Assembly: GCA_964016885.1 (NCBI GenBank)
Contig: OZ024745.1
Location: 61,380,001-61,444,000 of the forward strand
DNA: 64,000 bases
Direction: 5' to 3'
From: Eledone cirrhosa
Lineage: Eukaryota
A program made the position numbers and the translations under genes. Position 1 is the stretch's first letter; every line of letters starts with the position of its first letter. Shown here piece by piece: positions 20,637-57,089 of the stretch. The notes under the pieces are model-generated. The model was given only the letters and a program-made list of their open reading frames with translations, was not told the DNA's origin and made no database searches.

Positions 20637-20686
<50 letters not shown>

Positions 20687-20796
20687 TTAATATGCAAATG
20701 AGATTAATCACCTCATTTACACAGACGAGAAATGTATATATTCTCGCCTGTCTTCTAGTCCAGCAGTCGCAAGCGGGGGGTGAGGTGGGGGGTGGG

Positions 20797-20840
20797 ACCG
20801 TCCTGACGAAGGCCAGTTAAGCCTGAAATGCATAGACGGT
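20797..20840 (+). ncRNA. Type I hammerhead ribozyme, complete core
   Basis: ACCGTC-CTGACGA-AGGC cagttaa GCCT-GAAA-TGCA-TA-GACGGT: 6 bp stem I, 4 bp stem II, palindromic ATGCAT stem III. Confidence 0.9.
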
Positions 20841-20955
20841 TGTCCCCCTTGCTTCTGCTGGACATCACCAGAGGGCGCTAGCCCCCCCCCCCCCCCCAGG
20901 TGTTTGCATAGCTACGTCTTCCTAAAACCGTATTTCCTTGGCGATACGAAATATT

Positions 20956-23556: not shown

Positions 23557-24175
23557 AATATGGTTTTATAAATATAGTTTCCATTTGCTAATATATATAT
23601 ATATATATACGTACATACATATATACATTCTTAATACAAAGAAACATACATTCACACAAACAAGCATACATCACATACATACACAAACAAACAGAAACAC
23701 ACATATAAACAAGCATACACCACATATATATGAACAACTACACACATATATAGGCACACACACATTTAAATACATAGAAGCACATACAAGAGCATACGAA
23801 CAGATACAAAGCACACTAAAGGAAAAAAAAAAAATAAGTTGAAGGAAAAGCTTCTGTCTCAGCTTCCGCACCTCAAGTCGTTCAGATATCCCCATTTTTT
23901 CATATTTCACGGTTATATGTCATGAAAACCATATGATTTACATCGCAACTCGGGATCAGTTACACACACACACACACACACGCACACACACACACACACA
24001 CATACACACACACATAGACACGCACATACACCCCCTCCCCCACATACATACAGACACACACATATACAGACACACACACACTCACACAGACACACACAGC
24101 CACACACACATACACTCGTACACATATGTGTGTTTGTGTGTGTATATATATAGATTATATATATATATATGTATA

Positions 24176-24225
<50 letters not shown>

Positions 24226-24619
24226 TATACTGATACATACGCACAAACATACACACACAAATATACATACACACATACTACACAGACACACTGAAACATA
24301 CACACACCACACACATACAAACATACACACTCACGACCCACACATACACACACTCTCACTCACTAACACACTTACACGTTCATGTTCATTTATATTATAC
24401 GTCTTTAGGCACACGCAAATACTTATACGAACAAATACATAAACATGCGTAGAAGGAAATACACACACATACACCCATTCACTCATGCACTTACACGTTC
24501 ATGTGCCTATACACGCACGAACCCATGTATACACACATACATGTATAGTAAGAAATATACGTACATACAAACACATACGTATATATCTCAGTAGAATTTT
24601 AGAATTTTCGATACATCTT

Positions 24620-25358
24620 TATACAGTTGTCCGGGACATTGTACAGGACAATGTAAAGATAAGAACATAGTCTACATAGGTGAGACAGCTCGTACTATAG
24701 GAAAACGATTAAATATAGAAAATAATCATCAGTACTCCACCCACATGCTAAAATATAACATAAGGGCAAATTAGAGAACATAGAAATAGAAATAAAATCT
24801 ACACACAGAAAAGACGCAATGTTTAGACAAATCACAGAGGCAATAAACATAAATGAACTCCAACCAAAATTAAATAGAAAACATGAATAGAATAGCAATT
24901 TCACAACTTACAATTAAGGACAAAATGAAAACACACACACATAGAACAAGCAACCAACCAGTAACATGTAAATAAACACATAAAAACACACAGACACCCG
25001 GATGTAACACATGCGCAAACTAAGCACACAACACACACAAAAACAAGATGGCGTAGGACAGAACAAAGGAGAGACACAAAACAAAGAAAATAATCCCCAG
25101 TCACTGAAGAGGTCACATAATGTGTGACGAAAGAACTTTGACAATATATGAACAACCGTCCGGTTGTGGAATCAACCAACCAACCGGAAATTTATAAATT
25201 TTTTTTTTTAAAATTTATAATTTAATTTATAATAAATTGGAGTGAAAGCAACTGGTGCGTGTGTTTCTTATTGGCAACATGACCCTCCCAAAGTATAACA
25301 ATATCGGTTTAAACATACGTTTTCAGATAAAGAATCTTGCTAAACAAATTCATAAACG

Positions 25359-25360
<2 letters not shown>
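24620..25360 (+). mobile_element. Penelope-like element 3' fragment: decayed GIY-YIG endonuclease plus 3'UTR with HHR
   Basis: CKDKNIVYIGETARTIGKR...RQITEAININELQPKLNRKHE; homologous to ORF 35408-35707; ends at (TA)n. Confidence 0.85.
25100..25142 (+). ncRNA. Minimal type I hammerhead ribozyme of the PLE
   Basis: GTCA-CTGAAGA-G-GTCACA taatg TGTGAC-GAAA-GAAC-TT-TGAC. Confidence 0.85.
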
Positions 25361-25402
<42 letters not shown>

Positions 25403-25557
25403 ATAGTAATAATAAAAAGTTTGAAGACTAAAATCCAAAGAAGGCTCGAATAAATATACATATATACACATATATATATGTATATATATATACATATATA
25501 TACATATATTTATAAATATATATATACATATATATACATATATATACATATATTTAT

Positions 25558-26160
25558 AAACAAACCGAACATTATAATAAATGTTCGGTAAACCCATACG
25601 TACATATATAAATGTGTGCATGTATGTATGTATATACATGCTACTGTACGTCTGAATACATATATGTATCTACGTATACATACTTATATTTAAGTATCAG
25701 CCGTACGAAGAGTGAGAAATGAAATTTCATTTTTTCCATTTATCGTTTTCGCTACGCCCGGCCGACTAACTCACTCGATATGCAAATTAGGCTGCTCAGC
25801 CGTTAATATGCATAAGGAAAGTATATACTTTCAAACGTTAAATCGATTGACAGGAAGGTATACGGTGCTGATGACAGCTAAGAACCTAGAAACTAGTTCA
25901 TCGTTCCTTTGTCAGTGTTGAACAAAAGAGCAACGATGGTTGCCGAACACTGTACGGCTTAATTCGGGCTGTTTGTTTACAAACAAACCGAACATTATGA
26001 TACATGTTCGGTAAACCCATACGTACATATATATATGTGTGCATGTATGTATGTATATACATACTACTGTACGTCTGTATACATATATGTATGTACGTAT
26101 ACATACTTGTATTTAAGTATCAGCCGTACTAAGAGTGAGAAATGAAATTTCATTTTTTCC

Positions 26161-26164
<4 letters not shown>
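25558..26164 (+). mobile_element. Tandem ~1.4-mer of a 423 bp retrozyme-like monomer
   Basis: 25558-25743 repeats at 25981-26164; HHR at 25862-25904; TA-rich repeats on both flanks. Confidence 0.78.
25862..25904 (+). ncRNA. Type I hammerhead ribozyme, weak stem II
   Basis: ACGGTG-CTGATGA-CAG..CTA-GAAA-CTAG-TT-CATCGT; stem I extends via AAGG/CCTT and TGACA/TGTCA; C-A mismatch at base of stem II. Confidence 0.7.
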
Positions 26165-26194
<30 letters not shown>

Positions 26195-42595: not shown

Positions 42596-42856
42596 GTTAA
42601 ACCACTGGGAGTGAAGAACCCCTAGCCCTTGTCAGGGCATTCTTCTAGGAGAAGGCATCTCAGGAAACTGGGTTAACTCCGACATAAAACCTGCGGCTCA
42701 GTAGTTACCGATGATGTTGATCTTTTCTTCTTTTCGGGTTATAACTACTGTCGCTCAGAGAGTGGGATTGGCTCAGTGCACAGTCTTTCCTCACTTTAAA
42801 AATATTCGTCACGCACAGGCATTGCACGAGTGCATTAATAATTATTAATAGTGCAC

Positions 42857-42904
<48 letters not shown>

Positions 42905-45900
42905 TTTTTTTTTTTTTTTTCCAAATATAAAAGAGATAATTGGCAATTTAGGTTCTGGAACAAAAAAGATCATTGGCAATAAGGGCAGGGGCCCCAGGTT
43001 ATCACAGCCTGGGCCCGCTCGTCATCGTGCCATTGTAATAGAGCCAAACAAGGCATTTAGTCTTGGCTGCTGGAACGTACGGACGCTGCTTGACAGGGAT
43101 TCCTTGGGGCGTCCTGAACGAAGGACCGCTCTTGTTGCAAAGGAGCTTCGACGTTACGATCTTGACATCGTGGCTTTATCTGAGACGAGGCTAGCTGGAG
43201 ATGGCCATCTTACGGAATTTTGTGGAGAATATACATTCTTCTGGAAAGGAAGAGATGAAGGAACCAGAAGAGAGGCTGGGGTAGGATTTGCTGTTAAGAC
43301 TGTGCTTTTGAACAAATTAGAAGAATTCCCAGTAGGGATTAGTGAGCGTCTTATGTCCATGAGAGTTCCGCTGGACAGGGGAAGATATGCTACCCTGGTG
43401 AGTGTGTATGCTCCAACTATGAGTTCTGTCGATGAGAAAAAGATGTCTTTTGACCATGCCTTGAAAGGTGTTTTAAGAAATATCCCTCAGGCAGACAAAG
43501 TCATCGTGCTTGGTGACTTTAATGCTAGAGTGGGTAGAGATTTTAACACATGGAATGTAATCGGAAGGCATGGGGTGGGAAAGTGTAACAGCAATGGTAT
43601 GCTCCTGCTGCAGATGTGTGAGGAGCTGGATCTGTGTTACCAACACCATGTTCCAACAAAAGAACAAATTCAAGACCACATGGATGCATCCTGCATCTAA
43701 GGAATGGCATCTTTTGGACTACGTCCTAGTCAGGATGCGTGACAGACAGGATGTGCAGTGTGTTCGTGTTCTTCGTGGAGCTGAGTGCTGGACGGACCAC
43801 CGCCTGGTACGCGCAAAAGTGAAACTAATCACTAAACGTAAAATCCGGGCTCCTGGTGTTGCCCTGCCCAAAAGATTGAATGCTGCTCGTCTTAAGGATA
43901 AAAATGTGAAGAGGACATTGGAAGAAGAGATGCAGGCTGCAGATCTTGGTGAGGATTGGCCGACCCTTAAAAAGTCGGTTTATGATGTAGGCAGGCGTGT
44001 TCTGGGATTGGCGCAGAGGAAACATCAGGACTGGTTTGATGAGAATGATGTACATATAGAAGACTTGTTGGCTGATAAGAGGCGTACTCTGTCACGCTAC
44101 TTGACGGCAAAACCACAGGAGAGGAATACGTTGCATGAGGAACTCAGGGATGTAAAATCACGTGTTAGGCGGAGTCTTTCTCAGATGAAGGATCAGTGGT
44201 GGAGTGAGAAGGCTGGTGAGATACAAACTGCGTCTGATTCCAATAACACAAAGCTGTTGCACAGTCTCTTGCGTGAGGTTTATGGACCGTCTTCTTCTCT
44301 GGTGACACCGCTTCGCAGCAAGGATGGCAAAGAACTTCTTCGTGACTCACAAGGAATTCTACGAAGGTGGCGAGAGCACTTTGATGATCTTTTGAATCAG
44401 CCGTCTGTCGTCAGTGAAGATTTCCTCAATCTCATTCCAGAAAGTCCTGTGAAAGTAGCTCTCGCAGAACCTCCGACGCTTGTGGAGGTTGCAGTGGCTA
44501 TTTCGAAGCTGAACAGTGGAAGATCTCCAGGTATGGATGGCATACATGCTGAGCTCCTACAATATGGTGGTGAGAGACTCCTGCAACATCTTCACTCTTT
44601 GTTTGGCAGGATATGGGCTAATGAATCCGTACCTGAGGACTGGAGAGATGCAGTAATGGTGGTCTTGTACAAGGGAAAGGGTAACAGGAACGATTGTGCG
44701 AACTACAGAGGTATATCATTGCTTTCTGTCGTAGGGAAAGTTTTATGTAGGGTGCTTCTGGACCGTCTGCTGACACACATTGCAGATTGTGTTCTTCCTG
44801 AAAGTCAATCTGGTTTTCGTGCTGGACGCGGCACTACTGATATGATCTTCTCAGCTAGACAGCTCCAGGAGAAGTGCATGGAACAAGGCTTGGATCTGTA
44901 TCAGGTTTTTGTCGATCTGACAAAAGCTTTCGATACTGTTAACAGAGATGCATTATGGAAGGTTCTCCAGAAACTTGGTTGCCCTGATAAGTTCCTTGCT
45001 TTAGTTAGGTCTTTCCATGACGACATGAAGGCTTGGGTTAATGTCGGGGGTAACATGTCGGAGCCTATCTCAGTAAAAAATGGAGTGAAGCAGGGGGATA
45101 TTCCAGCACCGACCCTGTTTGCCATATACTTTGCAATGGTTTTCTGTATTGCATTCAGGAATTGCGAGCATGGTGTTTACATCCGATATCGAACCTCAGG
45201 CAGCATATTTAACATCAGGCGCTTTGCTGCGAAGACAAAAGTGTTTACATCAATCATAAGAGACCTCTTGTATGCAGATGATTGCGATCTTGTAACGCAC
45301 ACAGAGAGTGATATGCAGCACATTTTGAATGCATTTTCTGACGCTTGCACTGCCCTAGGTCTGACTGTCAGTCTCAAGAAAACCGTCGTCATGTACCAAC
45401 CTGCCCCAGGTAAGCAGTACACTGAACCAAACATCTATGTGTATGGCAAACGACTTGGAGTGGTTGATCAGTTTGTCTACGTGGGAAGCACTGTCAATCG
45501 ATACAGCAACCTTGACAGTGAAATCTCACTTAGGATTAGGAAAGCAAGTGATGCTTTCGGAAAGCTAGAAAGGCGACTCTGGGATCGGCGAGACATATGC
45601 AGGAGGACAAAGGTAAAGGTGTACAGGGCATGTGTGCTCTCTTGTCTTCTTTATGCCTGCGAGACCTGGGTCACATATCGACACCACCTTAAGCAATTGG
45701 AGCGTTTCCATCAGATGTGTCTCAGACGGATCCATGGCGTTCACTGGAGGAACCACATCAGTGATGTCGAGATTTTGGAAAGCTCTATGTGTGACAGTAT
45801 AGAAGCTCTTGTGCTTAAGCAACGACTCCGTTGGAGTGGTCACCTTGCCAGGATGAAGGATTCTAGAATACCAAAACAACTCTTTTATGGAGAGTTGGTT

Positions 45901-46552
45901 AAAGGAAAACGACCGCCACATAAACCAAAAAAGAGGTATAAGGATTCCTTGAAAGCCTCTCTGAAAGACGCTAACATCTCTGCTGATACATGGGAGAATA
46001 TTGCTGCTGATCGTAATAAATGGAGAAAGACTGTATATGAGGGAAAAGTTGCCTTTGAGGCATCTCGAATCGCATACGAGAAAGTAAAGCGGGATGTGAG
46101 GAAGGCATTGTTGTTGCACTTCCAGACGGCGAGGGTCCTCCTATGGTGCTGACATACGGCGTATGTGCGAGACTCTGCCTAACCAAAGCTGGACTCGAAA
46201 GTCATCTTCGCAGTCATAAAGTAAGACTAGTGGTTGACTACCAGGCTGCTGTTGGAGATGCTACTCATCATGCTTGCCAAACATGTGGTAGAGAATGTAA
46301 ATCAGCAGGAGGGCTCAAGCGACATGCAAAAGTACGCGAACTCCAACCACAGTCGACTATTCCCAGTGAATGTTTTGGTTGCCGACTCTGTGCAAGACAT
46401 TTTAGATCATTGGCTGGGCTAAAAAGCCACATTCGATCGCATCGCTGTTAGTTGCTATCGTGTGTGTGTGTATATATGCTTGTTTGTGCGTGTGTGTGTA
46501 TATATATATATGTATATGTATATTATTATTGTTGTTGTCGTTATTATTATTG

Positions 46553-46831: not shown

Positions 46832-49800
46832 TCAGATATTCAGGACGTATCGGAGGGTTCTTGCTGTTCCAAGCAAGCATGCCTTTTGAAGCGTTCCAAA
46901 AAGCGTGAAGGGGCCGATTTTCTTTAACCATCCCTGGAAACTTTTGGAGATAGTCCCCAGTGCGCCTATGACAATCGGGATCACTTTGACTTCATGGCAG
47001 TTCCAAATCCTTTTCACCTCCCACTTTAGGTCCTGGTATCGGTTAATTTTCTCCCTCTCCTTCTCTTGCACTCTCGTGTCGAACGGGCAGGCCACATCCA
47101 CAATCAGGCACGATCTTTTTTCTTTGTCCACAACCACCAGGTCAGGTCTATTGTGTTCCAGTTTTTTGTCCGTCTGTATCCTAAAATCCCACAGCACCTT
47201 CACCTGATTGTTCTCCATCACCGCCTCTGGCCTATGCTCATACCATTTCTCAGAATGTGGTAAATTGTTTACTTTGCACAGGTGCCAGTGGATCACCCTG
47301 CCCATCACATCGTGTCTCCAGCCCTTATAGTGGGTCTGGGCTAGGTGTTTACACTCGGACACAATGTGAGCCACAGTCTCCTCTCTCTCTCCACAGATCC
47401 TGCACAGTGGGCTAGCCTCCTCCTTGTAGATATGGTGCTTCAACCACTTCGTTTTGAGGGCCTGCTCCTGCGCAGCCATTAGCATTCCTTCTGTAGCCTT
47501 TTTGAGGTCTCCTCTTCTCAACCAGTTCCATGTCTGTGGATCTCTAAATTCAGTTTTCTCAAAGAAGGTACTATGAAGGGATTTTCCCTTAAGGCTGCTC
47601 TTCCTCCTTGATGTTATTTCCTCCTTGGACATCCCCTGGCCTACTGTCCCCTCCTTCAGTACAGTTCTGAGCATTGGCTCCTTACTATAGGTCACGTATT
47701 TGTATAGGTTGTTTTTCTCCATCTGAACACAGTCCTCTATGCTGATAAGACCTCTTCCACCCTCAGATCTCCTTAGGTAGAGTCTATCGACATCACTCCT
47801 CTTGTGGAACATGTTGTAGGTAGTCAATAGCTTCCTAGTCTTCCTATCCATTTCTTTTTGTTCAGCAACATTCCATCTCAGAATTCCCGCACTGTACCTA
47901 ATAATAGACACAGCTCGGGAATTTACTGCGCTTATGGCATTTCTGCTGTTCAGATGTGACTTCAATACGCTCCTTACTCTCCGAATGTATTCAGTTCTTA
48001 ACAATTCCTTCATTTTTTTGTTCTTTATGCCATCAGCCTCCAGAACGCCCAAATACTTGTATCCTTCCTCAGAGTCAATTTCCTTTATCATCTCACCTGT
48101 TGGTATCTGGATCCCGTTACTTCTGCTCAACCTACCCCTCTTCATCACAATGACTCCACATTTACCAATACCAAACTGCATACATATATCACTGCTGAAA
48201 ATACGGACAGTGTCAACAAGCACATCCAACTCCTTCTCACTTTTCCCGAAGAGCTTAAGATCGTCCATGAAGAGGAGGTGATTGATGGTAAGCTCTCCCC
48301 TTCCCAACTTGTATCCTGCTCTCACTTTTCGCAGCATAATGGTCAAGGGCATCAGGGCAAGGACAAACAACAGAGGGGACAGGCTATCTCCCTGGAAGAT
48401 ACCTCTCTTGATCTTCACGCTTCCCAAGGATACTCCAGTTGATGTCAACTCTGTCTCCCAGGACCCCATACTCCTGCCTAGCAACTGTCTGATGTTATCT
48501 GCCACCCTGAAGATCTCCAGGCTTTTGGTGATCCAGGAATGAGGCACCATGTCAAATGCCTTTCTGTAGTCTATCCATCCCATGGCAAGATCAGTGTGTC
48601 TCCTCCTGCAATTCCCCATTACCATCTTATCAACAAGTAACTGGTCCTTTGTACCACGTGACTTCTTTCGGCATCCTTTCTGTTCGTCCGGTAACAAGTT
48701 GTTTGTGTGGAGGTGATGGTAGATTTCCTCAGACACAATGCTCGTCAACAGTTTCCACATTACGGACAGACATGTGATAGGTCTATAGTTGGTAACATCA
48801 TTACCCTTGATTCGGTCTTTCATTATCAGAACTGTGGTACCTTTTGTCAACCACTCTGGCACCTCACCCGACACCAAGCAGTCATTGAACATGGCCGTCA
48901 GCTTCGGGTGGAGGGATGTTAAATGTTTAATCCAATACCCCTGCACACCATCTGGGCCTGGTGATTTCCAGTTGGTTAGTTTTTTGGCCTGCCCCTTAAG
49001 AGTTTCAACTGTGATACTCAAATCAGTTTGTTGTTGTGCCTGCTCACCGATCTCCCTCTGTACTGTCTCAATCCACCCTGCCTGGACATTGTGTCTAACA
49101 TCCTGCTCCCATATTCCTCTCCAGAATGTTTTAGTTTGTTCCGCCCCAGGGATCAAGTCGTTGCCTCTTTCTTTCCCCTCAAGCTGTCCAAACAGCATCT
49201 TCTGGTTGTTGTCGAACATGCGGTTCTGTTTATACTGACTGACTCTGTTCTCGTATCGCCTGATTTTTGCACTCTTTGCTACAATGCGTTGCTTCAATTC
49301 CTCTATGATAATATTTAGCTTTTTACTCCTAGTTTTGTATTTTATTTCCAGTCTATTTTTAGTGCCTATGTTTTTTAGTGTCCCATTCAGTAGTGACTCA
49401 AGCTTTCCTATGTCATTTCTCATTTCCCCGATTTGCCCACTCAGTCGCTTCTTCCACCACGGCTCTGCTCTTTCTTGTCTGTTGTTTCCTCTCGCTTTTA
49501 TACCAAGTAGTTTCCTCACCGTATTTGCTGTTGCTTTGAGGATATTGTTGCACTGGTGAAGGCTCCTCGCCTCAAGGTATGGGATGACTTTGTTTACCTT
49601 AGCTGTTGTTTCTTTTAACTTTTTCCTGTCTACAAATCTTAGGTTCATAGGTCTCCCACTATCATTGTTCAATTCATCTACCACTAAATTTAGGATGTCA
49701 ACCGAATCTTGTCCTAGCCCGTCAGCATTCATCTCCTCAGTGGCCGTATCTCTGTTCCAGGTATTATTTATCTCAGTATTCAGATCATTGTCTGCTTCGG

Positions 49801-50092
49801 GTGGTTCCTCCGTTCTCAGGACCTCTTCACCTTCATTTCCCACTGGCTCGCTTGTCTGGCATACTACACCCGCCATCTCCAAGCCATTCTCTCTGCTCAG
49901 TTCCTCCAGTTCCAGCTCGCTTATCCACCCATTAGTTCTTATTACCCGAGCCTGCCCGGCCAATTTTTGTTCATCTAATTTAAATAAACCAATCTCGTTC
50001 CAGATGTTATGCATCCGTCTCCTGTAGCCCCTCTCCTTGGGGTCACTTTTCAGGTAGCATTGCATAACAGTTCTATTCAATTCTTTCGTCAA
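46832..50092 (-). CDS. Dong/R4-clade RT-REL polyprotein (element ~46757-50360), family C
   Basis: 1086 aa open; WIDYRKAFD, GIFQGDSLSP, FMDDLKL, CRIC..HIVSEC, RHD, RPD..DVACP; 3' end runs into (TAA)n; in-frame upstream ATG 50224 is separated by one stop. Confidence 0.95.
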   Translation of the reverse strand: MTKELNRTVMQCYLKSDPKERGYRRRMHNIWNEIGLFKLDEQKLAGQARVIRTNGWISELELEELSRENGLEMAGVVCQTSEPVGNEGEEVLRTEEPPEADNDLNTEINNTWNRDTATEEMNADGLGQDSVDILNLVVDELNNDSGRPMNLRFVDRKKLKETTAKVNKVIPYLEARSLHQCNNILKATANTVRKLLGIKARGNNRQERAEPWWKKRLSGQIGEMRNDIGKLESLLNGTLKNIGTKNRLEIKYKTRSKKLNIIIEELKQRIVAKSAKIRRYENRVSQYKQNRMFDNNQKMLFGQLEGKERGNDLIPGAEQTKTFWRGIWEQDVRHNVQAGWIETVQREIGEQAQQQTDLSITVETLKGQAKKLTNWKSPGPDGVQGYWIKHLTSLHPKLTAMFNDCLVSGEVPEWLTKGTTVLIMKDRIKGNDVTNYRPITCLSVMWKLLTSIVSEEIYHHLHTNNLLPDEQKGCRKKSRGTKDQLLVDKMVMGNCRRRHTDLAMGWIDYRKAFDMVPHSWITKSLEIFRVADNIRQLLGRSMGSWETELTSTGVSLGSVKIKRGIFQGDSLSPLLFVLALMPLTIMLRKVRAGYKLGRGELTINHLLFMDDLKLFGKSEKELDVLVDTVRIFSSDICMQFGIGKCGVIVMKRGRLSRSNGIQIPTGEMIKEIDSEEGYKYLGVLEADGIKNKKMKELLRTEYIRRVRSVLKSHLNSRNAISAVNSRAVSIIRYSAGILRWNVAEQKEMDRKTRKLLTTYNMFHKRSDVDRLYLRRSEGGRGLISIEDCVQMEKNNLYKYVTYSKEPMLRTVLKEGTVGQGMSKEEITSRRKSSLKGKSLHSTFFEKTEFRDPQTWNWLRRGDLKKATEGMLMAAQEQALKTKWLKHHIYKEEASPLCRICGEREETVAHIVSECKHLAQTHYKGWRHDVMGRVIHWHLCKVNNLPHSEKWYEHRPEAVMENNQVKVLWDFRIQTDKKLEHNRPDLVVVDKEKRSCLIVDVACPFDTRVQEKEREKINRYQDLKWEVKRIWNCHEVKVIPIVIGALGTISKSFQGWLKKIGPFTLFGTLQKACLLGTARTLRYVLNI

Positions 50093-50459
50093 GTTGGTTT
50101 AGGCCCCTTTCCTTCTTCTTCTTCCTCCAACATCAGCAGTATTTGGTTGACAGTCAGGTTCCTGCTGCTGAGCCAGGGGGCACCTGTTGGGTGAGAGTCT
50201 GTCACATGACGTTCTAGTCTCCATTTCACCGTTATTCGAACTGTTTATGTTCGATATTTAAACACTCTTATCGAGGATTGGCGAATGTATGGTTACATAG
50301 CCATCTGTGGATCCGCCATCCAACTTGGCCCTTGTGTGGCATTATCACCACGCTGTATACGAACACACATAAACAAACAAACACACAGGCAGAAAGGGCC
50401 CCAAAAATGAATAAGCATAAGTTTCATTGTAATGTAGTGTTCGAATGTCTGACTTAGTT

Positions 50460-51303: not shown

Positions 51304-51510
51304 TTTATTATTATTATTATTATTATTATTGAATGCCATGGTTGACGGAGGCTCGGCTCTGTAAGGTATAGTAATTTTTAACCGTTAAAACAATTGTAAA
51401 TTGTTTAAAACTTGAACCAAATTGTTGATAAAGACACCCTCCTCCTCGTGAGAGGGGTCTTTCTGTCCGTTATTTGGCCCTTCGGGGTTAAATAACCAGT
51501 TATTGGGGTT

Positions 51511-53073
51511 TTGTACCCAAAATTTCATTTTAAACAAAAAACAACATGGCTACGAAAAAGAAATTTCATACGTCACTCCCACTCATTCCGTCTTCTTCTT
51601 CCTCAATCATCACTACAGCAGAGAGAAGATTGTCTCTCCCTCCCTTCTTTAAATGTGTCTCTCTCCCTCCCTTCTCTTTCGCAAGTGACGAAAGAAAAGA
51701 AAAGTCTCGTGCAAAGCGTGCAAGGTTTCTTCACGACGACGACGACAGCGACGAAACAGGTGTGCGGGAAATACGAAAACCCAGTTCATTCGTCTGACGT
51801 CAGGAATAATAGCAGTAGCAGCCATAATAACAACAGCAACAGTGACAATGAAAACAACAGTAGCAGCCGCAACAGCATCACCAGCAGCATAAACAACAAC
51901 AGCATTAGCAACAGCAACACCAACAACAACCACAGCAACAGCGGCGGAGGCAGTAGTCGTAGTACCTGCAGCAACAACAAAAGTACCAGCAGCTCTGACG
52001 ACAACAACAACAGCAGAGAAAAACCAATCTCATTTGCAGGTATTGCGAAAAACTTGGAAACAATCCTCATAACAAATGAGGAATTAGAGGAAGCGAAGAA
52101 GATGGTGACAAAGAACGGACACCGAGCAATCTGCAAGGCAGCGGAAAAATTTTTCGAAACCCAAGAGCACTGTACGGTCACGTACCGTACAGTAAGTACA
52201 AAATCCCGTAGGGTGGAAAGAGCCACAGAGGCCCAAATACAAAAAGCCTTGGAGTCTGTGTGGCAGCGGAAAACGCACATCACCCGAGGCAAAAAATATG
52301 CCACCGTAGACGTACTTTTTGCCACACCCCAGGAGGCAAAGGCCCAATCAGTAGTGACCCTAAGGAGCGAGGAAATGGTGTTGGTGCCCTCCTACTGCGG
52401 GCAAAAAATTGTGAGGGTCAAACTGACCCACGTCCCCCCCGGAATGACCCCTTCTTGGCTGGCCGCGTCTGTCCTCGTCGGAATCGAGGACAAAACAACT
52501 GTACTGCAAGTACAGAAAAAAGTAAGAGAAGATTGGGTCGGCTCCTCCATTGAGATGCTAATCCAAACCAACCAGGAGTGCATCGAAGCTATCCCGGATG
52601 TGATAGACTTCGATAACGGCACTCAACTGCCCATAAGTGTTGAGGGAAAACGCCCGAAATGCTTTCGCTGTGGATCGAAGACTCACCTCAGGGCCTTCTG
52701 CAACGAGAAGACCCTGAGAAAGGAGAAAACCCCCCTCCTTCCGAATCCGGCTCCACGGCTACCAGCAACAGGACAAGCGGCAACCAGGAACGATAGGTCC
52801 GTGGCACCCATACCCACTCCACGGAAATCAAAAACAGCAGCAGCAGTGGAAATATTAACAACAACAACAACAGCAATACCAAATGCAGCTGCAACAGAGA
52901 CTCCAGTGCAAACATCACCAACAACAACAAGTGAAAGAGTGGAGCTGGTACCCCTCCCCGACCTCACAGAATCAGACATGGAGTGTGAGGTGGGAGAGGG
53001 ATGGCAAAAGGTCGCAAGAAGACACAAACGCAGAAGCAGCGCATCGTCGCCTTTGAAAGGAGGAAAGAAATGA
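51511..53073 (+). CDS. Tx1-clade ORF1 (CCHC zinc knuckle); true start may be ATG 51547 with a frameshift
   Basis: CFRCGSKTHLRAFC; lies upstream of APE-RT ORF2. Confidence 0.85.
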   Translation: MYPKFHFKQKTTWLRKRNFIRHSHSFRLLLPQSSLQQREDCLSLPSLNVSLSLPSLSQVTKEKKSLVQSVQGFFTTTTTATKQVCGKYENPVHSSDVRNNSSSSHNNNSNSDNENNSSSRNSITSSINNNSISNSNTNNNHSNSGGGSSRSTCSNNKSTSSSDDNNNSREKPISFAGIAKNLETILITNEELEEAKKMVTKNGHRAICKAAEKFFETQEHCTVTYRTVSTKSRRVERATEAQIQKALESVWQRKTHITRGKKYATVDVLFATPQEAKAQSVVTLRSEEMVLVPSYCGQKIVRVKLTHVPPGMTPSWLAASVLVGIEDKTTVLQVQKKVREDWVGSSIEMLIQTNQECIEAIPDVIDFDNGTQLPISVEGKRPKCFRCGSKTHLRAFCNEKTLRKEKTPLLPNPAPRLPATGQAATRNDRSVAPIPTPRKSKTAAAVEILTTTTTAIPNAAATETPVQTSPTTTSERVELVPLPDLTESDMECEVGEGWQKVARRHKRRSSASSPLKGGKK

Positions 53074-53669
53074 GAAAAGGGTAAAGTCTACTGCAAAGAG
53101 ACCCACAGCAGCAACACCACCAACACCATCACCACCCACACCAGCACCACCATCACCACCACCGGCGACAACCCCACCGCCAACAATACCTTCAACACCA
53201 CCACCACAAGCACCAACATCGCAAACACAACAACAAAACACACACACCCAGCAACAACGACAAGAAAATAGCAGAACCACACCCCACCCCCAGAAAAACA
53301 AATGCACGGCAATAAACACACACAACAAGAAACTAATGACTTACATAATTGAACACACAGACATTTCACAACAGGACTACATAATACCAGCACCAATCAA
53401 AACGCCAACTAACATAAGACTGCTAAAAATAGCACAGAAACAATACACAAACATTAAAACGAAATTCCCCAACGCAGTTGGTGATTTCAGGGACCTAGGA
53501 GGAACCATCAATCGAAGAGTATATTCTTAGAAGAGCCGACGACCAGCCGAAGGGACGATTCAATGGTCCCTTCACCAGACGATCAAGTGAAAAGGGATGT
53601 AAAAACCATCCCTCCTCTACCAAAAGTACGGTAAGTGGTCTTTCCCATCTTTTCCACTCTATTTTAAAC

Positions 53670-56600
53670 ATGACCTCACTAAGAATAGGCAGCATAAATG
53701 CGCGTGGCTTGGGGTCGTCATGGAAGCAGGGTCACCTGCTCAACGACCTCAGGTCACTAAACATAGATGTAGTGGCCATCAGCGAGACCAGAATCTCCGA
53801 AGCACGGGCCTTCGCACCGATCTTCGGCGGCTACGATGTATACGCATCTCCCAGCCGTCCTGGATCGGGTGGAGGAGTTGCTGTGCTTTTTCGGAGAGGT
53901 TTGGATCTCGCCATACGGGCCATCTTCCTGGACCCAGAGGGTAAGCTGGTGGTGCTGGACGTGACCAGCGGAGACGGGCAAGCTTTCAGGCTAGTGGCCG
54001 TCTATGCCCCGACAGGAGCAGGGCGGCCTGATTTCTTCCGGCGTCTGGAGACCTTTCTTGGAACGTCCCGCTCTTTAGTGTTAGTGGGCGACTGGAACGG
54101 GATCTTAGATGCACGCTGGGACTGTGTGGGATTAGCGGATAGGGGTGGAGGGTGCAAGAGCCTCCCCAACCTGCTCAGGCGTTTTGAACTGTCTGACAGG
54201 TACCGATTGGATTTCCCGAATGTGCCAATGTGGACTTGGACAAACCGCATAGGGTCATCCAGATCATATCTAGATAGAGTATTTTGTAGGGAAATAGATA
54301 GGTCTAGCATAGGCTGTCCACAATTCAAGATAGTCAGCTACACGGACCACAAATTCGTGACCTGTGTGCTTGACTTAGATAGGCTTCATAGACGAGGACC
54401 CGGCTACTGGAAGCTAAACGCGTCCTTACCAGCGCGCAAGGCCTACAGAGACCGGATTAGCGAACTAGTTAAGCGGGCGTTGACGGGGGCCATCGTCAAC
54501 AACAAGTGGTGGTTTGCTCTGAAAAGAGCGATTAGAATAGAATCGATTAGGTTTAGTAAGGCTTTAGCAATAGAGAAAAATAGAGCAGAGGGAGAACTAG
54601 TTAGAAAATTAGACGAGGCGCTTAGCAAAGGCATTGCGACCGACGTGCTTGCGGCGAAATTGGCCCTTGACCAATTCTTCAATGCAAAGCACGAAGGCTG
54701 CGTTGTCAGAGCTAGGGTGCGTGCTCTCAGACACGAGGGGACGAAAGCCGTTCAATGGGCCCGAGTGGCGGAGGCGCGTCGTGGCAACAAAGCCACGATC
54801 CGGTCTTTGGTGGACCACGACGGGCGCATGCTACTCGACCCCGGGCAAATGTGTGAAGCTTTTCAGCGACACTTCGCTCAGCTGTTCGGGGGCAGCGGGG
54901 GGCCGGGTAGAGGGATGGACTTTAGTGTCTACCTCGACGGACTGCCGCGGCTCTCGGCCACTGAGGCGAAGTGTTGCGAAAAGCCGATAACAGCCGCTGA
55001 AGTACGGGAGGCAATGACTGGCTGCACAAGGGGTAAATCGCCTGGTTTGGATGGTCTGCCCTATGAACTTTACGTACAGATGCCAGACTTGTTCGGAGGC
55101 CTCTTGGCGGACGTCTACTGCAACTGGCAACAGAACGGGAGAATTCCCAGTTCTGTGAGCCGAGGAGCGGTGGCACTGCTGAGAAAGGATCCGAACAAGG
55201 GGGATAACATAGACAATTTCCGGCCCATAACTCTGCTAAACACAGAGTTTAAGATTTTGGCCAAGGTGCTAGCAAAGAGGTTGGCGCTTGTCGTTGGTGG
55301 TCTGGTGGGAGAGGCGCAGACATGCGCCATTCCCGACAGATCCATCCACGACAACCTCCACCTCATGCGATACATCGTAGAGAGGGTAGCTAGGGAACCT
55401 GGCACGGGTGGGTCCTTGATCAATTTAGATCAGTCGAAAGCTTTCGATAGGGTCGACCATCGTTACCTAGCGGCAGTCCTGAGGGCGGCTGGCTTTGGGC
55501 CCGTCTTCAGAGGCTGGATCGCTGCCATGCACAGCGACATCTGCTCTGTAGTGAGAGTGAACGGTCACCTGTCGGAACCGTTCAACATCATGCGCTCGGT
55601 CCGCCAAGGATGTCCCCTCTCGTCCCTCTTGTACGTATTGACTCTCGAGCCATTACTGCACAAACTGGAGACGTTGAGGGGAGTCCCGCGCGAACTAGGA
55701 TGCGGAAGATCCGTGTCAGCATATGCGGACGATGTCACCGTAGTGGTGTCGAACGCCAAACACATCGAGGCGATCGGCACTACACTAAGAGAATACGAAG
55801 CGGTGACAGGAGCAATGATCAACCAGGAAAAGTCAGTGGGCCTGCAGCTCGGCACCTGGAGAGGCAGGTCCATGCCGTCCAACAGCGTCGTCGGGCGCTG
55901 GACGGACGGACCGGTTAAATTGCTAGGGGTCTGGTTCGGTCCGGACCTCCAGACGGACAAAAACTGGGACGAGGTGACGAGCAGGGTGGCTTCTCTCACC
56001 CAGAAATGGGCGGAGAGGAAGCTATCCCTGAAAGGTCGAGCGGAGGTGGCTAACGCGTACATCGCGTCTGTCATCTGCTACCGCCTAACCGTCGTACCTT
56101 GTCCTAAGCCTCGCCTGACTGCGCTGGAGCGTTTGCTCTTTCGCTTTTTGTGGAAGGGACGTGCTCCGATGGTCAGGCGGTCCATCTGTTGTCAACACCC
56201 GCTACGTGGAGGGCTGGGCATGCCGTGGCTGATGATGCGCAGGCACGCGCTCAGGCTACGACATCTCCACCTCTTCCTCGACGGTGATCAGGTGTGGTCG
56301 CCGTTTGCTAGACGCGTTTTTCCCCAGCTCGTTTCCTTGACGGAGCTGCAGTCCTGGGTCAAGCGAAGACCGAGAGGGAGCGCCTGGAGACTGGAATGTC
56401 TTCAGGCGCTCACAGCCCTCGACCAATCGGGCAATGTGATCGGTGGAAACTCCACCTCGGCGTTCTATAGAGGATTAGTGGAGGGGAAGAGCGACGACGT
56501 ACTTGGGGAAACTCTAGGCGTCGACGAAAATCAACTAGCCAATCTCTTCGGAAGAACTTTCGGGCCAGGGCCTATGGACAACTTCCAGAAATCTCTGGCC

Positions 56601-57089
56601 TGGCAGTGCTACCGACGAGCCTTGCCAGTTCGGGATAAACTCTACAGGCATGGAGGTGCCGTCAGCCGGGCATGTCCGAGATGCGCGCAGGGCGACGAAA
56701 CCGTCCTGCACGCACTCGTCCAGTGTCCGAAAATTGCTGACTTGTGGGTTTATGTCGAACACCTGCTGTCGCGTTTAGGACGGATCCGGCTATCATCTGA
56801 GTCCATCGTGAGGATTGCCCCGCCCTCCTCCTTTAGCCGGGAAGGGCAGGCAGTTTTTATCTGCCTGGTGGCCATGGCGAAAGAGATAGTATGGTGGACA
56901 CGTTTGAAAGGGCTGAAGACGAGCACTTACCTCTTCGGTGATGCTCTGATTGACTTTTTCAAATTTCATTTGAAAAGGAAAATCAGAGTAGAGAGGGAAG
57001 TGCTCTCTTCCCAGCATTTTGTTGAAAGATGGGTGAGAGAAGCAAGAATGGCCCGAGTGAATGGGCCTACTCTGAGCATATATCTGTAA
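53670..57089 (+). CDS. Tx1-clade ORF2 (APE endonuclease, RT, C-terminal zinc finger), intact; element 51331-57340
   Basis: SINARGL, VYAP, GDWN, YLDR, TDH, YWKLN, SPGLDGLP, DQSKAFDRVDH, VRQGCPLS, AYADD, CPRC..HALVQC; (ATT)n on both flanks. Confidence 0.96.
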   Translation: MTSLRIGSINARGLGSSWKQGHLLNDLRSLNIDVVAISETRISEARAFAPIFGGYDVYASPSRPGSGGGVAVLFRRGLDLAIRAIFLDPEGKLVVLDVTSGDGQAFRLVAVYAPTGAGRPDFFRRLETFLGTSRSLVLVGDWNGILDARWDCVGLADRGGGCKSLPNLLRRFELSDRYRLDFPNVPMWTWTNRIGSSRSYLDRVFCREIDRSSIGCPQFKIVSYTDHKFVTCVLDLDRLHRRGPGYWKLNASLPARKAYRDRISELVKRALTGAIVNNKWWFALKRAIRIESIRFSKALAIEKNRAEGELVRKLDEALSKGIATDVLAAKLALDQFFNAKHEGCVVRARVRALRHEGTKAVQWARVAEARRGNKATIRSLVDHDGRMLLDPGQMCEAFQRHFAQLFGGSGGPGRGMDFSVYLDGLPRLSATEAKCCEKPITAAEVREAMTGCTRGKSPGLDGLPYELYVQMPDLFGGLLADVYCNWQQNGRIPSSVSRGAVALLRKDPNKGDNIDNFRPITLLNTEFKILAKVLAKRLALVVGGLVGEAQTCAIPDRSIHDNLHLMRYIVERVAREPGTGGSLINLDQSKAFDRVDHRYLAAVLRAAGFGPVFRGWIAAMHSDICSVVRVNGHLSEPFNIMRSVRQGCPLSSLLYVLTLEPLLHKLETLRGVPRELGCGRSVSAYADDVTVVVSNAKHIEAIGTTLREYEAVTGAMINQEKSVGLQLGTWRGRSMPSNSVVGRWTDGPVKLLGVWFGPDLQTDKNWDEVTSRVASLTQKWAERKLSLKGRAEVANAYIASVICYRLTVVPCPKPRLTALERLLFRFLWKGRAPMVRRSICCQHPLRGGLGMPWLMMRRHALRLRHLHLFLDGDQVWSPFARRVFPQLVSLTELQSWVKRRPRGSAWRLECLQALTALDQSGNVIGGNSTSAFYRGLVEGKSDDVLGETLGVDENQLANLFGRTFGPGPMDNFQKSLAWQCYRRALPVRDKLYRHGGAVSRACPRCAQGDETVLHALVQCPKIADLWVYVEHLLSRLGRIRLSSESIVRIAPPSSFSREGQAVFICLVAMAKEIVWWTRLKGLKTSTYLFGDALIDFFKFHLKRKIRVEREVLSSQHFVERWVREARMARVNGPTLSIYL

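Follow-up and report, generated by a model that had tools for sequence, protein, structure and literature searches.

Retrozymes are known in animals (PMC7229834) and have been linked to Penelope elements (bioRxiv 10.64898/2026.07.22.740005). According to the available text on them, metazoan non-LTR retrozymes consist of short, AT-rich, non-coding tandem monomers that carry a type I hammerhead and occur in high copy number (PMC7229834), and they accumulate in all tissues, which is atypical for retroelements, with no promoter given (Cervera & de la Pena 2020, PMC7229834). In the portions of PMC7229834 available to us, the word promoter occurs twice, both times for T7, and octopus never, whereas the element described here carries a putative internal promoter whose parts can be traced to the host. 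Those retrozymes are reported to be expressed as linear and circular monomer RNA, and circularisation is predicted for the family studied here (F2). The accessible part of the bioRxiv report makes no mention of promoter, TATA, snRNA or octopus.

Newt satellite 2 is, like F2, a hammerhead repeat, and its internal snRNA-type promoter, comparable to the one predicted for F2, is transcribed by Pol II (PMC2220036, PMC6765202). In the schistosome Sm-alpha hammerhead SINE/satellite, a promoter likewise precedes the hammerhead in each repeat, and single copies likewise cannot propagate it (PMC6765202); Sm-alpha appears to be served by Pol III, whereas the predicted F2 promoter is of the upstream PSE type. 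Captured Pol III promoters are also described in LTR elements (PMC10886601). Penelope-like elements and their non-autonomous derivatives share with F2 the partial tandems and inverted 5'-truncated copies (PMC8557442, PMC11167929, bioRxiv 10.64898/2026.07.22.740005), the AT-rich or (TA)n targets and a fixed 3' end near a stem-loop, but F2 has no ORF, and its hammerhead is not of the minimal kind, having a long stem I.

In the literature searched, an snRNA-type promoter in an invertebrate retrozyme was not described (Repbase/Dfam, subscription journals and supplements lay outside the search and may list families), and newt satellite 2 was the only precedent found among sources available in part. 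Its promoter, associated with the 1994 work of Coats et al., reportedly has an octamer and a PSE and no TATA box. The newt satellite is amphibian, whereas the layout found here includes a TATA-like box, recurs in several lineages and combines motifs of host Pol II and Pol III genes.

A hammerhead retrozyme between (TA)n tracts

The window (the whole stretch of 64,000 nucleotides analysed here) contains at 25558-26166 (+) a type I hammerhead retrozyme of family F2, a non-autonomous 1.4-mer copy that we infer to be mobilised by Penelope machinery. Tandem repeat alignment bore out the 423-bp monomer proposed in the initial annotation: a non-coding F2a monomer at 25558-25980 (+), with no ORF of at least 120 aa, is followed at 25981-26166 (+) by a partial second monomer, 95.7% identical over 186 bp, which forms a pLTR-like partial tandem and stops at the 3' end preferred by the family. 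The sequence on the left is a (TA)n-rich target tract (25450-25557) and that on the right a (TA)n target tract (26164-26194). Short, low-GC (0.32 for 24001-26000 of the window), non-coding tandem monomers, each with a hammerhead, characterise a non-LTR retrozyme, and array periods of the retrozyme monomers range from 325 to 502 bp.

We searched the 3.0-Gb assembly with a 296-bp F2a query and obtained 1366 candidates; 40 of these were scored, and the best full-length matches were 95-100% identical. The 30 F2 loci fetched were the best matches and are thus biased towards similarity, and two of them (L019 and L024) are the two arms of one locus. Within this set the octamer was exact in 29 of 30 loci, TCA(G/C) stood at +16 in 26, a TATA box was present in 28 and the hammerhead core was intact in 24, while an inverted copy adjoined the element in 16 of 30 (L019/L024 being one locus). 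The octamer-to-TATA spacing was 42 nt in 27 of the 28 copies having a TATA box and 45 nt in the other. Genome-wide, the pattern TATGCAAATKAG-N20-32-GTATAWA gave 19,662 matches versus 3 for its reversed control, and among the first 100 matches listed, 93 were F2 (spacing 42) and 7 were F1 (spacing 43), the family of the comparison element at 20686-20950 (+). The 11-mer-to-TATA pattern with a gap of 33-37 gave 245 matches versus 1 in the control, and with a gap of 38-50 it gave 84 versus 4. The 19,662 matches are copies and not separate events; the independent evidence lies in the match to host small-RNA promoters.

Five loci on one contig (L250-L254, G000:C1:51.786-51.793 Mb) carry F2 promoter copies that recur every 1713 bp, so that the F2 monomers form a higher-order array; the locus L252 had no Rfam or tRNA match. 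No tRNA gene was detected in the 64-kb window. Rfam scans of 18 and 8 motif-bearing loci returned no host RNA gene except a deliberately fetched U2 locus, and the miRNA matches in these scans were below cut-off and on simple repeats. Elsewhere in the window, near-intact LINE-like ORFs, judged by eye, lie at 42852-46152 (+; 863 aa), 46832-50098 (-; 1088 aa) and 51496-57089 (+; 525+1196 aa).

Putative promoter motifs and the host small-RNA genes

All motifs placed by the initial annotation are in the sequence, namely ATGCAAAT at 25780, TCAGCCGT at 25796, TATATA at 25822 within a palindrome and the CTGATGA hammerhead core at 25868. Its spacings were reproduced as well, with octamer-to-TATA distances of 42 nt in this element and 43 nt in the element at 20692, and PSE-like-to-TATA distances of 26 and 27 nt. 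The octamer is real, although the motif actually shared is an 11-mer, ATGCAAAT(T/G)AG, which in this copy reads ATGCAAATTAG (25780-25790, +), an extended octamer also found in host U6, U6atac, MRP and tRNA-Sec promoters. The PSE-like site (25795-25807, +; TCAGCCG core at 25796) matches a PSE matrix of host U1/U2/U4/U5/U12 genes. The TATA box (25822-25827) sits in a 16-bp palindrome (25817-25832, +) whose hairpin flanks differ from family to family around a constant TATA core. Host offsets (TATA+30, PSE+56) would place the transcription start at the A of a C/A junction, position 25852 (+). The F1 element, whose monomer in the family is 333 bp, shows the same order, with the 11-mer at 20692-20702, TCACC at 20708, TATA at 20735, a predicted start at A20765 and the hammerhead core at 20803 (+).

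We compared these motifs with host small-RNA promoters. Of 48 matching U6 loci, 20 were fetched; U6atac was represented by the best of 8 loci fetched out of 15 matches, MRP by its only locus and tRNA-Sec by its two best loci. The polymerase that transcribes each class of small-RNA gene is well established. The 11-mer ATGCAAATKAG, or a one-letter variant, stands at -76 to -79 in all seven promoter-bearing U6, U6atac, MRP and tRNA-Sec loci tabulated, and its distance to TATA in these Pol III loci is 46-48 nt. The top-scoring U6 genes (L031, L032) and two array copies (L033, L034) have it, exactly or with one letter changed, at -76 to -78, with TATA at -30. Two U6 array copies were without the 11-mer at the expected place. 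Fourteen further U6 loci, in which both motifs were absent from their expected places and which look retroposed, were dropped.

7SK and RNase P genes have a TCAGT core (at -63/-66) 32-33 nt before TATA, carry no 11-mer and end in T-runs. The 18 distinct host Pol II loci (U1, U2, U4, U5 and U12) have AATTAA near -90; their PSE core, (T/C)CAG, falls at -55 to -58 and is mostly followed 25-29 nt later by a TATA-like box. Within 400 nt upstream, the 11-mer was absent from the 20 U1/U2/U4/U5/U12 rows (18 distinct), which held one reverse octamer at -399; it was also absent from five U3 and two U11 loci, where the core is weaker. Both polymerase classes share a distal TTACCTCCCTT-like motif, located at about -240 to -290, although by pattern it was not found at U4, U5, tRNA-Sec or 7SK. 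The start nucleotide is A at U1, U2, U4 and U12, and U6 and MRP begin at a T/G junction. We did not find this host promoter code described in the literature searched; it rests on the upstream regions of L031-L034, L086, L094, L125, L162-L198, L267 and L311-L317.

One of the two U6 array copies lacking the 11-mer at the expected place (L035, C19) has its promoter naturally disrupted by a repeat that separates the 11-mer from TATA, and the same inserted sequence lies just upstream of TATA in L050. Six retroposed U6 copies (L038, L040, L041, L044, L047, L049) are chimeras in which U6 runs directly into the beginning of either of two SINE-like repeats. The contig of the window also carries the promoter-bearing U6 gene L031 (G000:C5:61247801), at a distance of about 132 kb.

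The retrozyme families could then be placed against the host classes. A PSE matrix was built from the 18 Pol II loci; in leave-one-gene-out tests it placed the true site at the top of the ranking 17 times out of 18, and it scored the +16 site at a per-position p of 0.0009 in F2a and F2b, 0.0004 in F6, 0.0002 in F9, 0.028 in F1 and 0.11 in F4, with no match in F3. Thus the PSE, which the initial annotation had named as its weakest call, stands for F2 and is weak for the family at 20692 and for F4. Among about 440 positions scanned, the +16 site was the best PSE+TATA site in F2a, F2b and F6. PSE-to-TATA spacings of 26 nt in F2, 27 nt in F1 and F6 and 25-27 nt in F4 reproduce the Pol II geometry of the host (25-29 nt), and TATA+30 falls on a C/A junction in F1, F2a, F2b and F6. 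F2 has three features of a host Pol II snRNA gene (PSE core at p 0.0009, a TATA-like box at a spacing of 26 and a predicted A start) together with the U6-class 11-mer upstream of TATA. It departs from the U6-class geometry, with 42, 26 and a C/A junction against 46-48 or 32-33 and a T/G start in the host, whereas F3 conforms to it. A host gene combining the 11-mer with a TCAG core was not seen among the host genes examined (100 of 651 pattern matches viewed).

The layout of 11-mer, +16 site and TATA at 41-44 nt was found in F1, F2a, F2b, F4, F6 and F9. In the families set against the host classes, the 11-mer-to-TATA distance is 41-43 nt, smaller by 3-7 nt than in host Pol III genes. A pattern that included the host core gave 651 matches and no control match, and the first 100 matches listed included 18 diverged loci, all of which were fetched. 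Sequence downstream of TATA joined 13 of these 18 to each other or to F1/F6 by BLAST, and at least 12 of 18 kept a hammerhead remnant with no more than two core mismatches (a loose test; L296 looks like chance). A Y/A junction, for which the pattern did not select, lay at exactly +30 in 10 of 18 and within 1 nt of it in 14 of 18; the 18 loci belong to few lineages and are not independent samples. The compact promoter layout supposed by the initial annotation to be shared across families thus extends to six families and older relatives, but it does not hold for hammerhead families in general: the family F8, found by RF00163, had the 11-mer in 0 of 17 rows, minimal Penelope-type hammerheads had no forward 11-mer, and in F3 the 11-mer-to-TATA spacing is 47.

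F3 is older, with 1897 candidates and about 80-86% identity among copies. When it was sought by its downstream part, 6 of 25 loci kept the 11-mer in place within one mismatch and one more within two, the remainder being mostly truncated or damaged. A Pol II PSE at +21 in F3 was considered and rejected (p 0.16), as was the idea that F4 lacks TATA, since the copy concerned (L145) had a 29-bp deletion and the family has a CATATAA box. F8 (L229-L246) is an abundant, canonical-looking hammerhead with inverted copies and (TA)n ends and with no tandem period in the loci fetched. A reverse 11-mer was present in 7 of 19 rows of minimal hammerheads (L037, L143, L144, L147, L148, L152, L153), about 126-136 nt upstream of the core and perhaps within the terminal part of a Penelope ORF; it was discounted as support, the rows having mostly been fetched for the motif. 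The F1 +16 site TCACCTCATT (20708-20717) shares an identical stretch of 10 nt with the distal element of host MRP (L094, -239), and older relatives of F1 have TCAGTC at this site.

Could short AT-rich words simply have coincided in two repeats? TATATA is common in this microsatellite-rich genome and the window contains three octamers, but in host U6, U6atac, MRP and tRNA-Sec genes the same 11-mer keeps a constant distance to TATA, the layout is present in at least six hammerhead families, and reversed-pattern controls give 0-4 matches. We regard coincidence as highly improbable and as largely refuted by the host match. The resemblance between F1 and F2 is itself confined to the promoter stretch, the only similarity recovered by local alignment of both elements, in line with the initial annotation. 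Its description of them as unrelated holds at the BLAST level, where sequence downstream of TATA gave no link among F1, the F2 clade and F3, and it goes too far in that F1 and F2 may still have a common ancestor; the shared layout may have arisen by convergence or by remote common ancestry.

Ribozyme, RNA fold and conservation of the 11-mer

The type I hammerhead spans 25847-25916 (+), with a core at 25868-25874 and 25889-25892, a stem I containing an internal loop and a palindromic stem III of 2 bp. The window copy has the CUGANGA, GAAA and NUH elements of the type I core, and cleavage is predicted after U25898, where GUU (25896-25898) fits NUH. Covariation argues for this structure: across the window copy, F2a, F2b, F4, F6 and F1 (six of nine aligned sequences, from which the structure was drawn by hand), pairing holds in 90.3% of cells and two-sided change occurs at 9 of the 12 pairs, a result reached by 0 of 500 shuffles. 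This set excluded F9 and two F3 rows, whose stem III is longer. At its base, stem II is non-canonical, being C-A in F2a and unpaired in four of the six rows, and a non-canonical pair at this position is also described for axolotl HHR_Amex2 in the available text of PMC7229834. Stem II is intact in 20 of the 24 F2 copies with a core; it is not fully Watson-Crick in the window copy, which has an additional C-C mismatch at 25885 where most of the family has G, and contigs from public runs have G at 25885 in nearly all depth. An Rfam scan of the window gave 0 matches at the gathering score, RF00163 picking up the different family F8, and an unconstrained fold of 25840-25925 did not yield the hammerhead (z -1.3).

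The fold of the monomer bears on whether its motifs work as a promoter. Folded as a circle, the F2 monomer reaches -120 kcal/mol (z -7.1 vs 40 shuffles), and in the predicted structure the 11-mer, the +16 site and TATA each lie within a hairpin. TCAGCC doubles as the 3' arm of an RNA hairpin, so RNA structure could account for this site. The motifs could accordingly be inherited relics or constraints on circular-RNA structure, with transcription by read-through from the host and no working promoter, and the multiplication here of several motif-less hammerhead families (F8, 0 of 17 rows) is compatible with such a history. Only one of the 11 columns of the 11-mer varies among F2a, F2b, F6 and F4, which are 53-80% identical pairwise, although the conserved window of the motif (11 of 12 invariant) is not significant by itself (shuffle P 0.086), a footprint result that suits a relic. 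Against this, the 11-mer stays fixed while the partner strand of its hairpin varies, which points to a sequence-specific role, and the spacings and start dinucleotide match those of host genes across lineages with differing spacers. We consider relics or structural constraint an improbable account, and it is likely that the F2 monomer contains some working promoter.

Polymerase, element ends and mobilisation

The best explanation, to which we give qualified preference on the strength of sequence comparison, is a hybrid SNAPc-type promoter of Pol II geometry that would start at A25852, with read-through, hammerhead release and Penelope reinsertion; the polymerase is probably Pol II. Its parts are explained by the small-RNA genes of the host, which carry them. 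Each monomer would have an internal snRNA-type (SNAPc) promoter merging two host designs: a PSE and TATA-like box arranged as in host Pol II snRNA genes, with a separation of 26 nt and a C/A start, and a U6-class 11-mer, 5 nt upstream of the PSE, that would replace the host distal element at about -260. The hybrid faces several objections. In the host, the 11-mer was seen at Pol III genes only; both other host Pol II motifs are missing from F2, where the best match to distal TTACCTCCCTT has three mismatches and no AATTAA lies 33 nt before the PSE (~-90); and the PSE is weak in F1 (0.028) and F4 (0.11) and absent in F3. The vertebrate TATA box, moreover, dominantly selects Pol III, according to the available text of PMC1761439.

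A compact type-3 Pol III promoter, possibly dual Pol II/III, is the main competitor. SNAPc/BRF2 would be recruited by the 11-mer and TATA, most transcripts would end at T6, and rare read-through would yield monomers. The model for it is the human H1 (RNase P RNA) promoter, which, like F2, packs octamer, PSE and TATA into about 100 bp and serves both polymerases, the choice being tied to spacer length (PMC7949045, as available in part). H1 differs in belonging to a host gene, in having a Staf site and in lying upstream of its transcript, whereas the predicted F2 promoter lies within it. The 11-mer is the mark of host U6-class genes, F1 and the F2 clade have a T5-T7 run about 35-50 nt before the next 11-mer, F3 has the host spacing of 47 with a T/G junction at +30 like U6, and schistosome hammerhead SINEs appear to be Pol III-transcribed (PMC6765202). 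The geometry of F2 argues the other way: compared with host Pol III genes, 11-mer-to-TATA is 42 vs 46-48 nt and PSE-to-TATA 26 vs 32-33 nt, transcription is predicted to start at a C/A and not a T/G junction, and a 5-bp spacer change inactivates U6 in the accessible account of PMC7949045.

The T-run itself argues in the same direction. The initial annotation had put T6 near the monomer end, which is true of the partial copy (26153-26158), but in the full monomer it lies mid-unit (25730-25735), where it forms the 3' arm of a hairpin (25714-25736, +) supported by fold and family comparison. Full monomers in arrays contain T5-T7 runs, and T6 is internal to every full F2 monomer, with copies running past it; the implied U6-like Pol III reading with T6 as terminator is thus not supported. 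We identified 42 hairpin anchors in 29 loci, of which 24 were internal and 18 flagged terminal, two of them wrongly. At the true F2 ends, 14 of 16 leave the element 3-8 nt past the T-run into AT-rich DNA, so the copied RNA extended past T6, and T6 was rejected as the cause of the 3' ends. In F3 (L097-L121, L268-L292), a T5-T8 run would stop Pol III only about 15 nt past the cut site, a further difficulty for the Pol III reading. Taking these observations together, we consider Pol III transcription unlikely, and we retain the Pol II hybrid.

Under the Pol II hybrid, arrays of at least two monomers would be transcribed from the A equivalent to 25852, inside outer stem I, and Pol II would pass the T-runs as well as the promoter that follows. 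One hammerhead after another would then excise a promoter-containing monomer RNA, which could circularise. A Penelope RT/endonuclease would start cDNA just 3' of the U-rich hairpin and insert it into (TA)n. The hairpin of the partial copy (26137-26159, +) is the candidate reverse-transcription start signal, and the element ends about 8 nt past its T6. F2 has the partial tandem, inverted 5' copy, (TA)n target and fixed 3' end of a non-autonomous Penelope-like element, and the 3' end of F4 is at the homologous site, while F1 ends at two sites, one of which is the T-run. For Penelope-like elements, partial tandems have been described along with inverted 5' copies and (TA)n targets (PMC8557442), and for Penelope, internal initiation in a stem-loop and AT-rich targets (PMC11167929), both from sources available in part. 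Microhomology priming was rejected for Penelope, the initiation site not being homologous to the cut DNA in the accessible text of PMC11167929. With a single hammerhead of damaged stem II, the window copy cannot release a full monomer, and it is most likely a dead end. The motifs, host matches, spacings, hammerhead covariation, end clustering and inverted copies were observed directly; transcription, polymerase, cleavage, circularisation and mobilising element of the F2 retrozymes we infer from them.

The window also holds two 3' remnants of Penelope elements, each with GIY-YIG-like coding sequence and a core resembling that of a hammerhead, at 35773-34900 (-; core 35149) and about 24660-25310 (+; core 25104). 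Both end in nearly the same 25-nt tail, which is different from the F2 element end; the first runs directly into (AT)n and the second lies 250 bp left of the F2 element.

The U6 geometry of F3 would mean a polymerase switch within the retrozymes. The combined proposition that a hybrid without counterpart among the host genes examined is kept across deeply diverged retrozymes, that the polymerase has switched and that SNAPc-type promoters are generally captured in animals is tentative, and we doubt that all of it holds. The host comparison yields single-base predictions, namely the starts at A25852 and A20765, the polymerase and which motif matters, and the host promoter code would be useful for native U6 expression cassettes. 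A compact promoter assembled from host small-RNA motifs could explain the transcription of such repeats, and an internal snRNA-type promoter would account for retrozyme accumulation in all tissues. If the hybrid is real, SNAPc/octamer-factor binding and transcription initiation could potentially occur at about 20,000 dispersed copies, and, together with newt satellite 2, the capture of a housekeeping SNAPc promoter would provide a general reason for the all-tissue expression of animal retrozymes.
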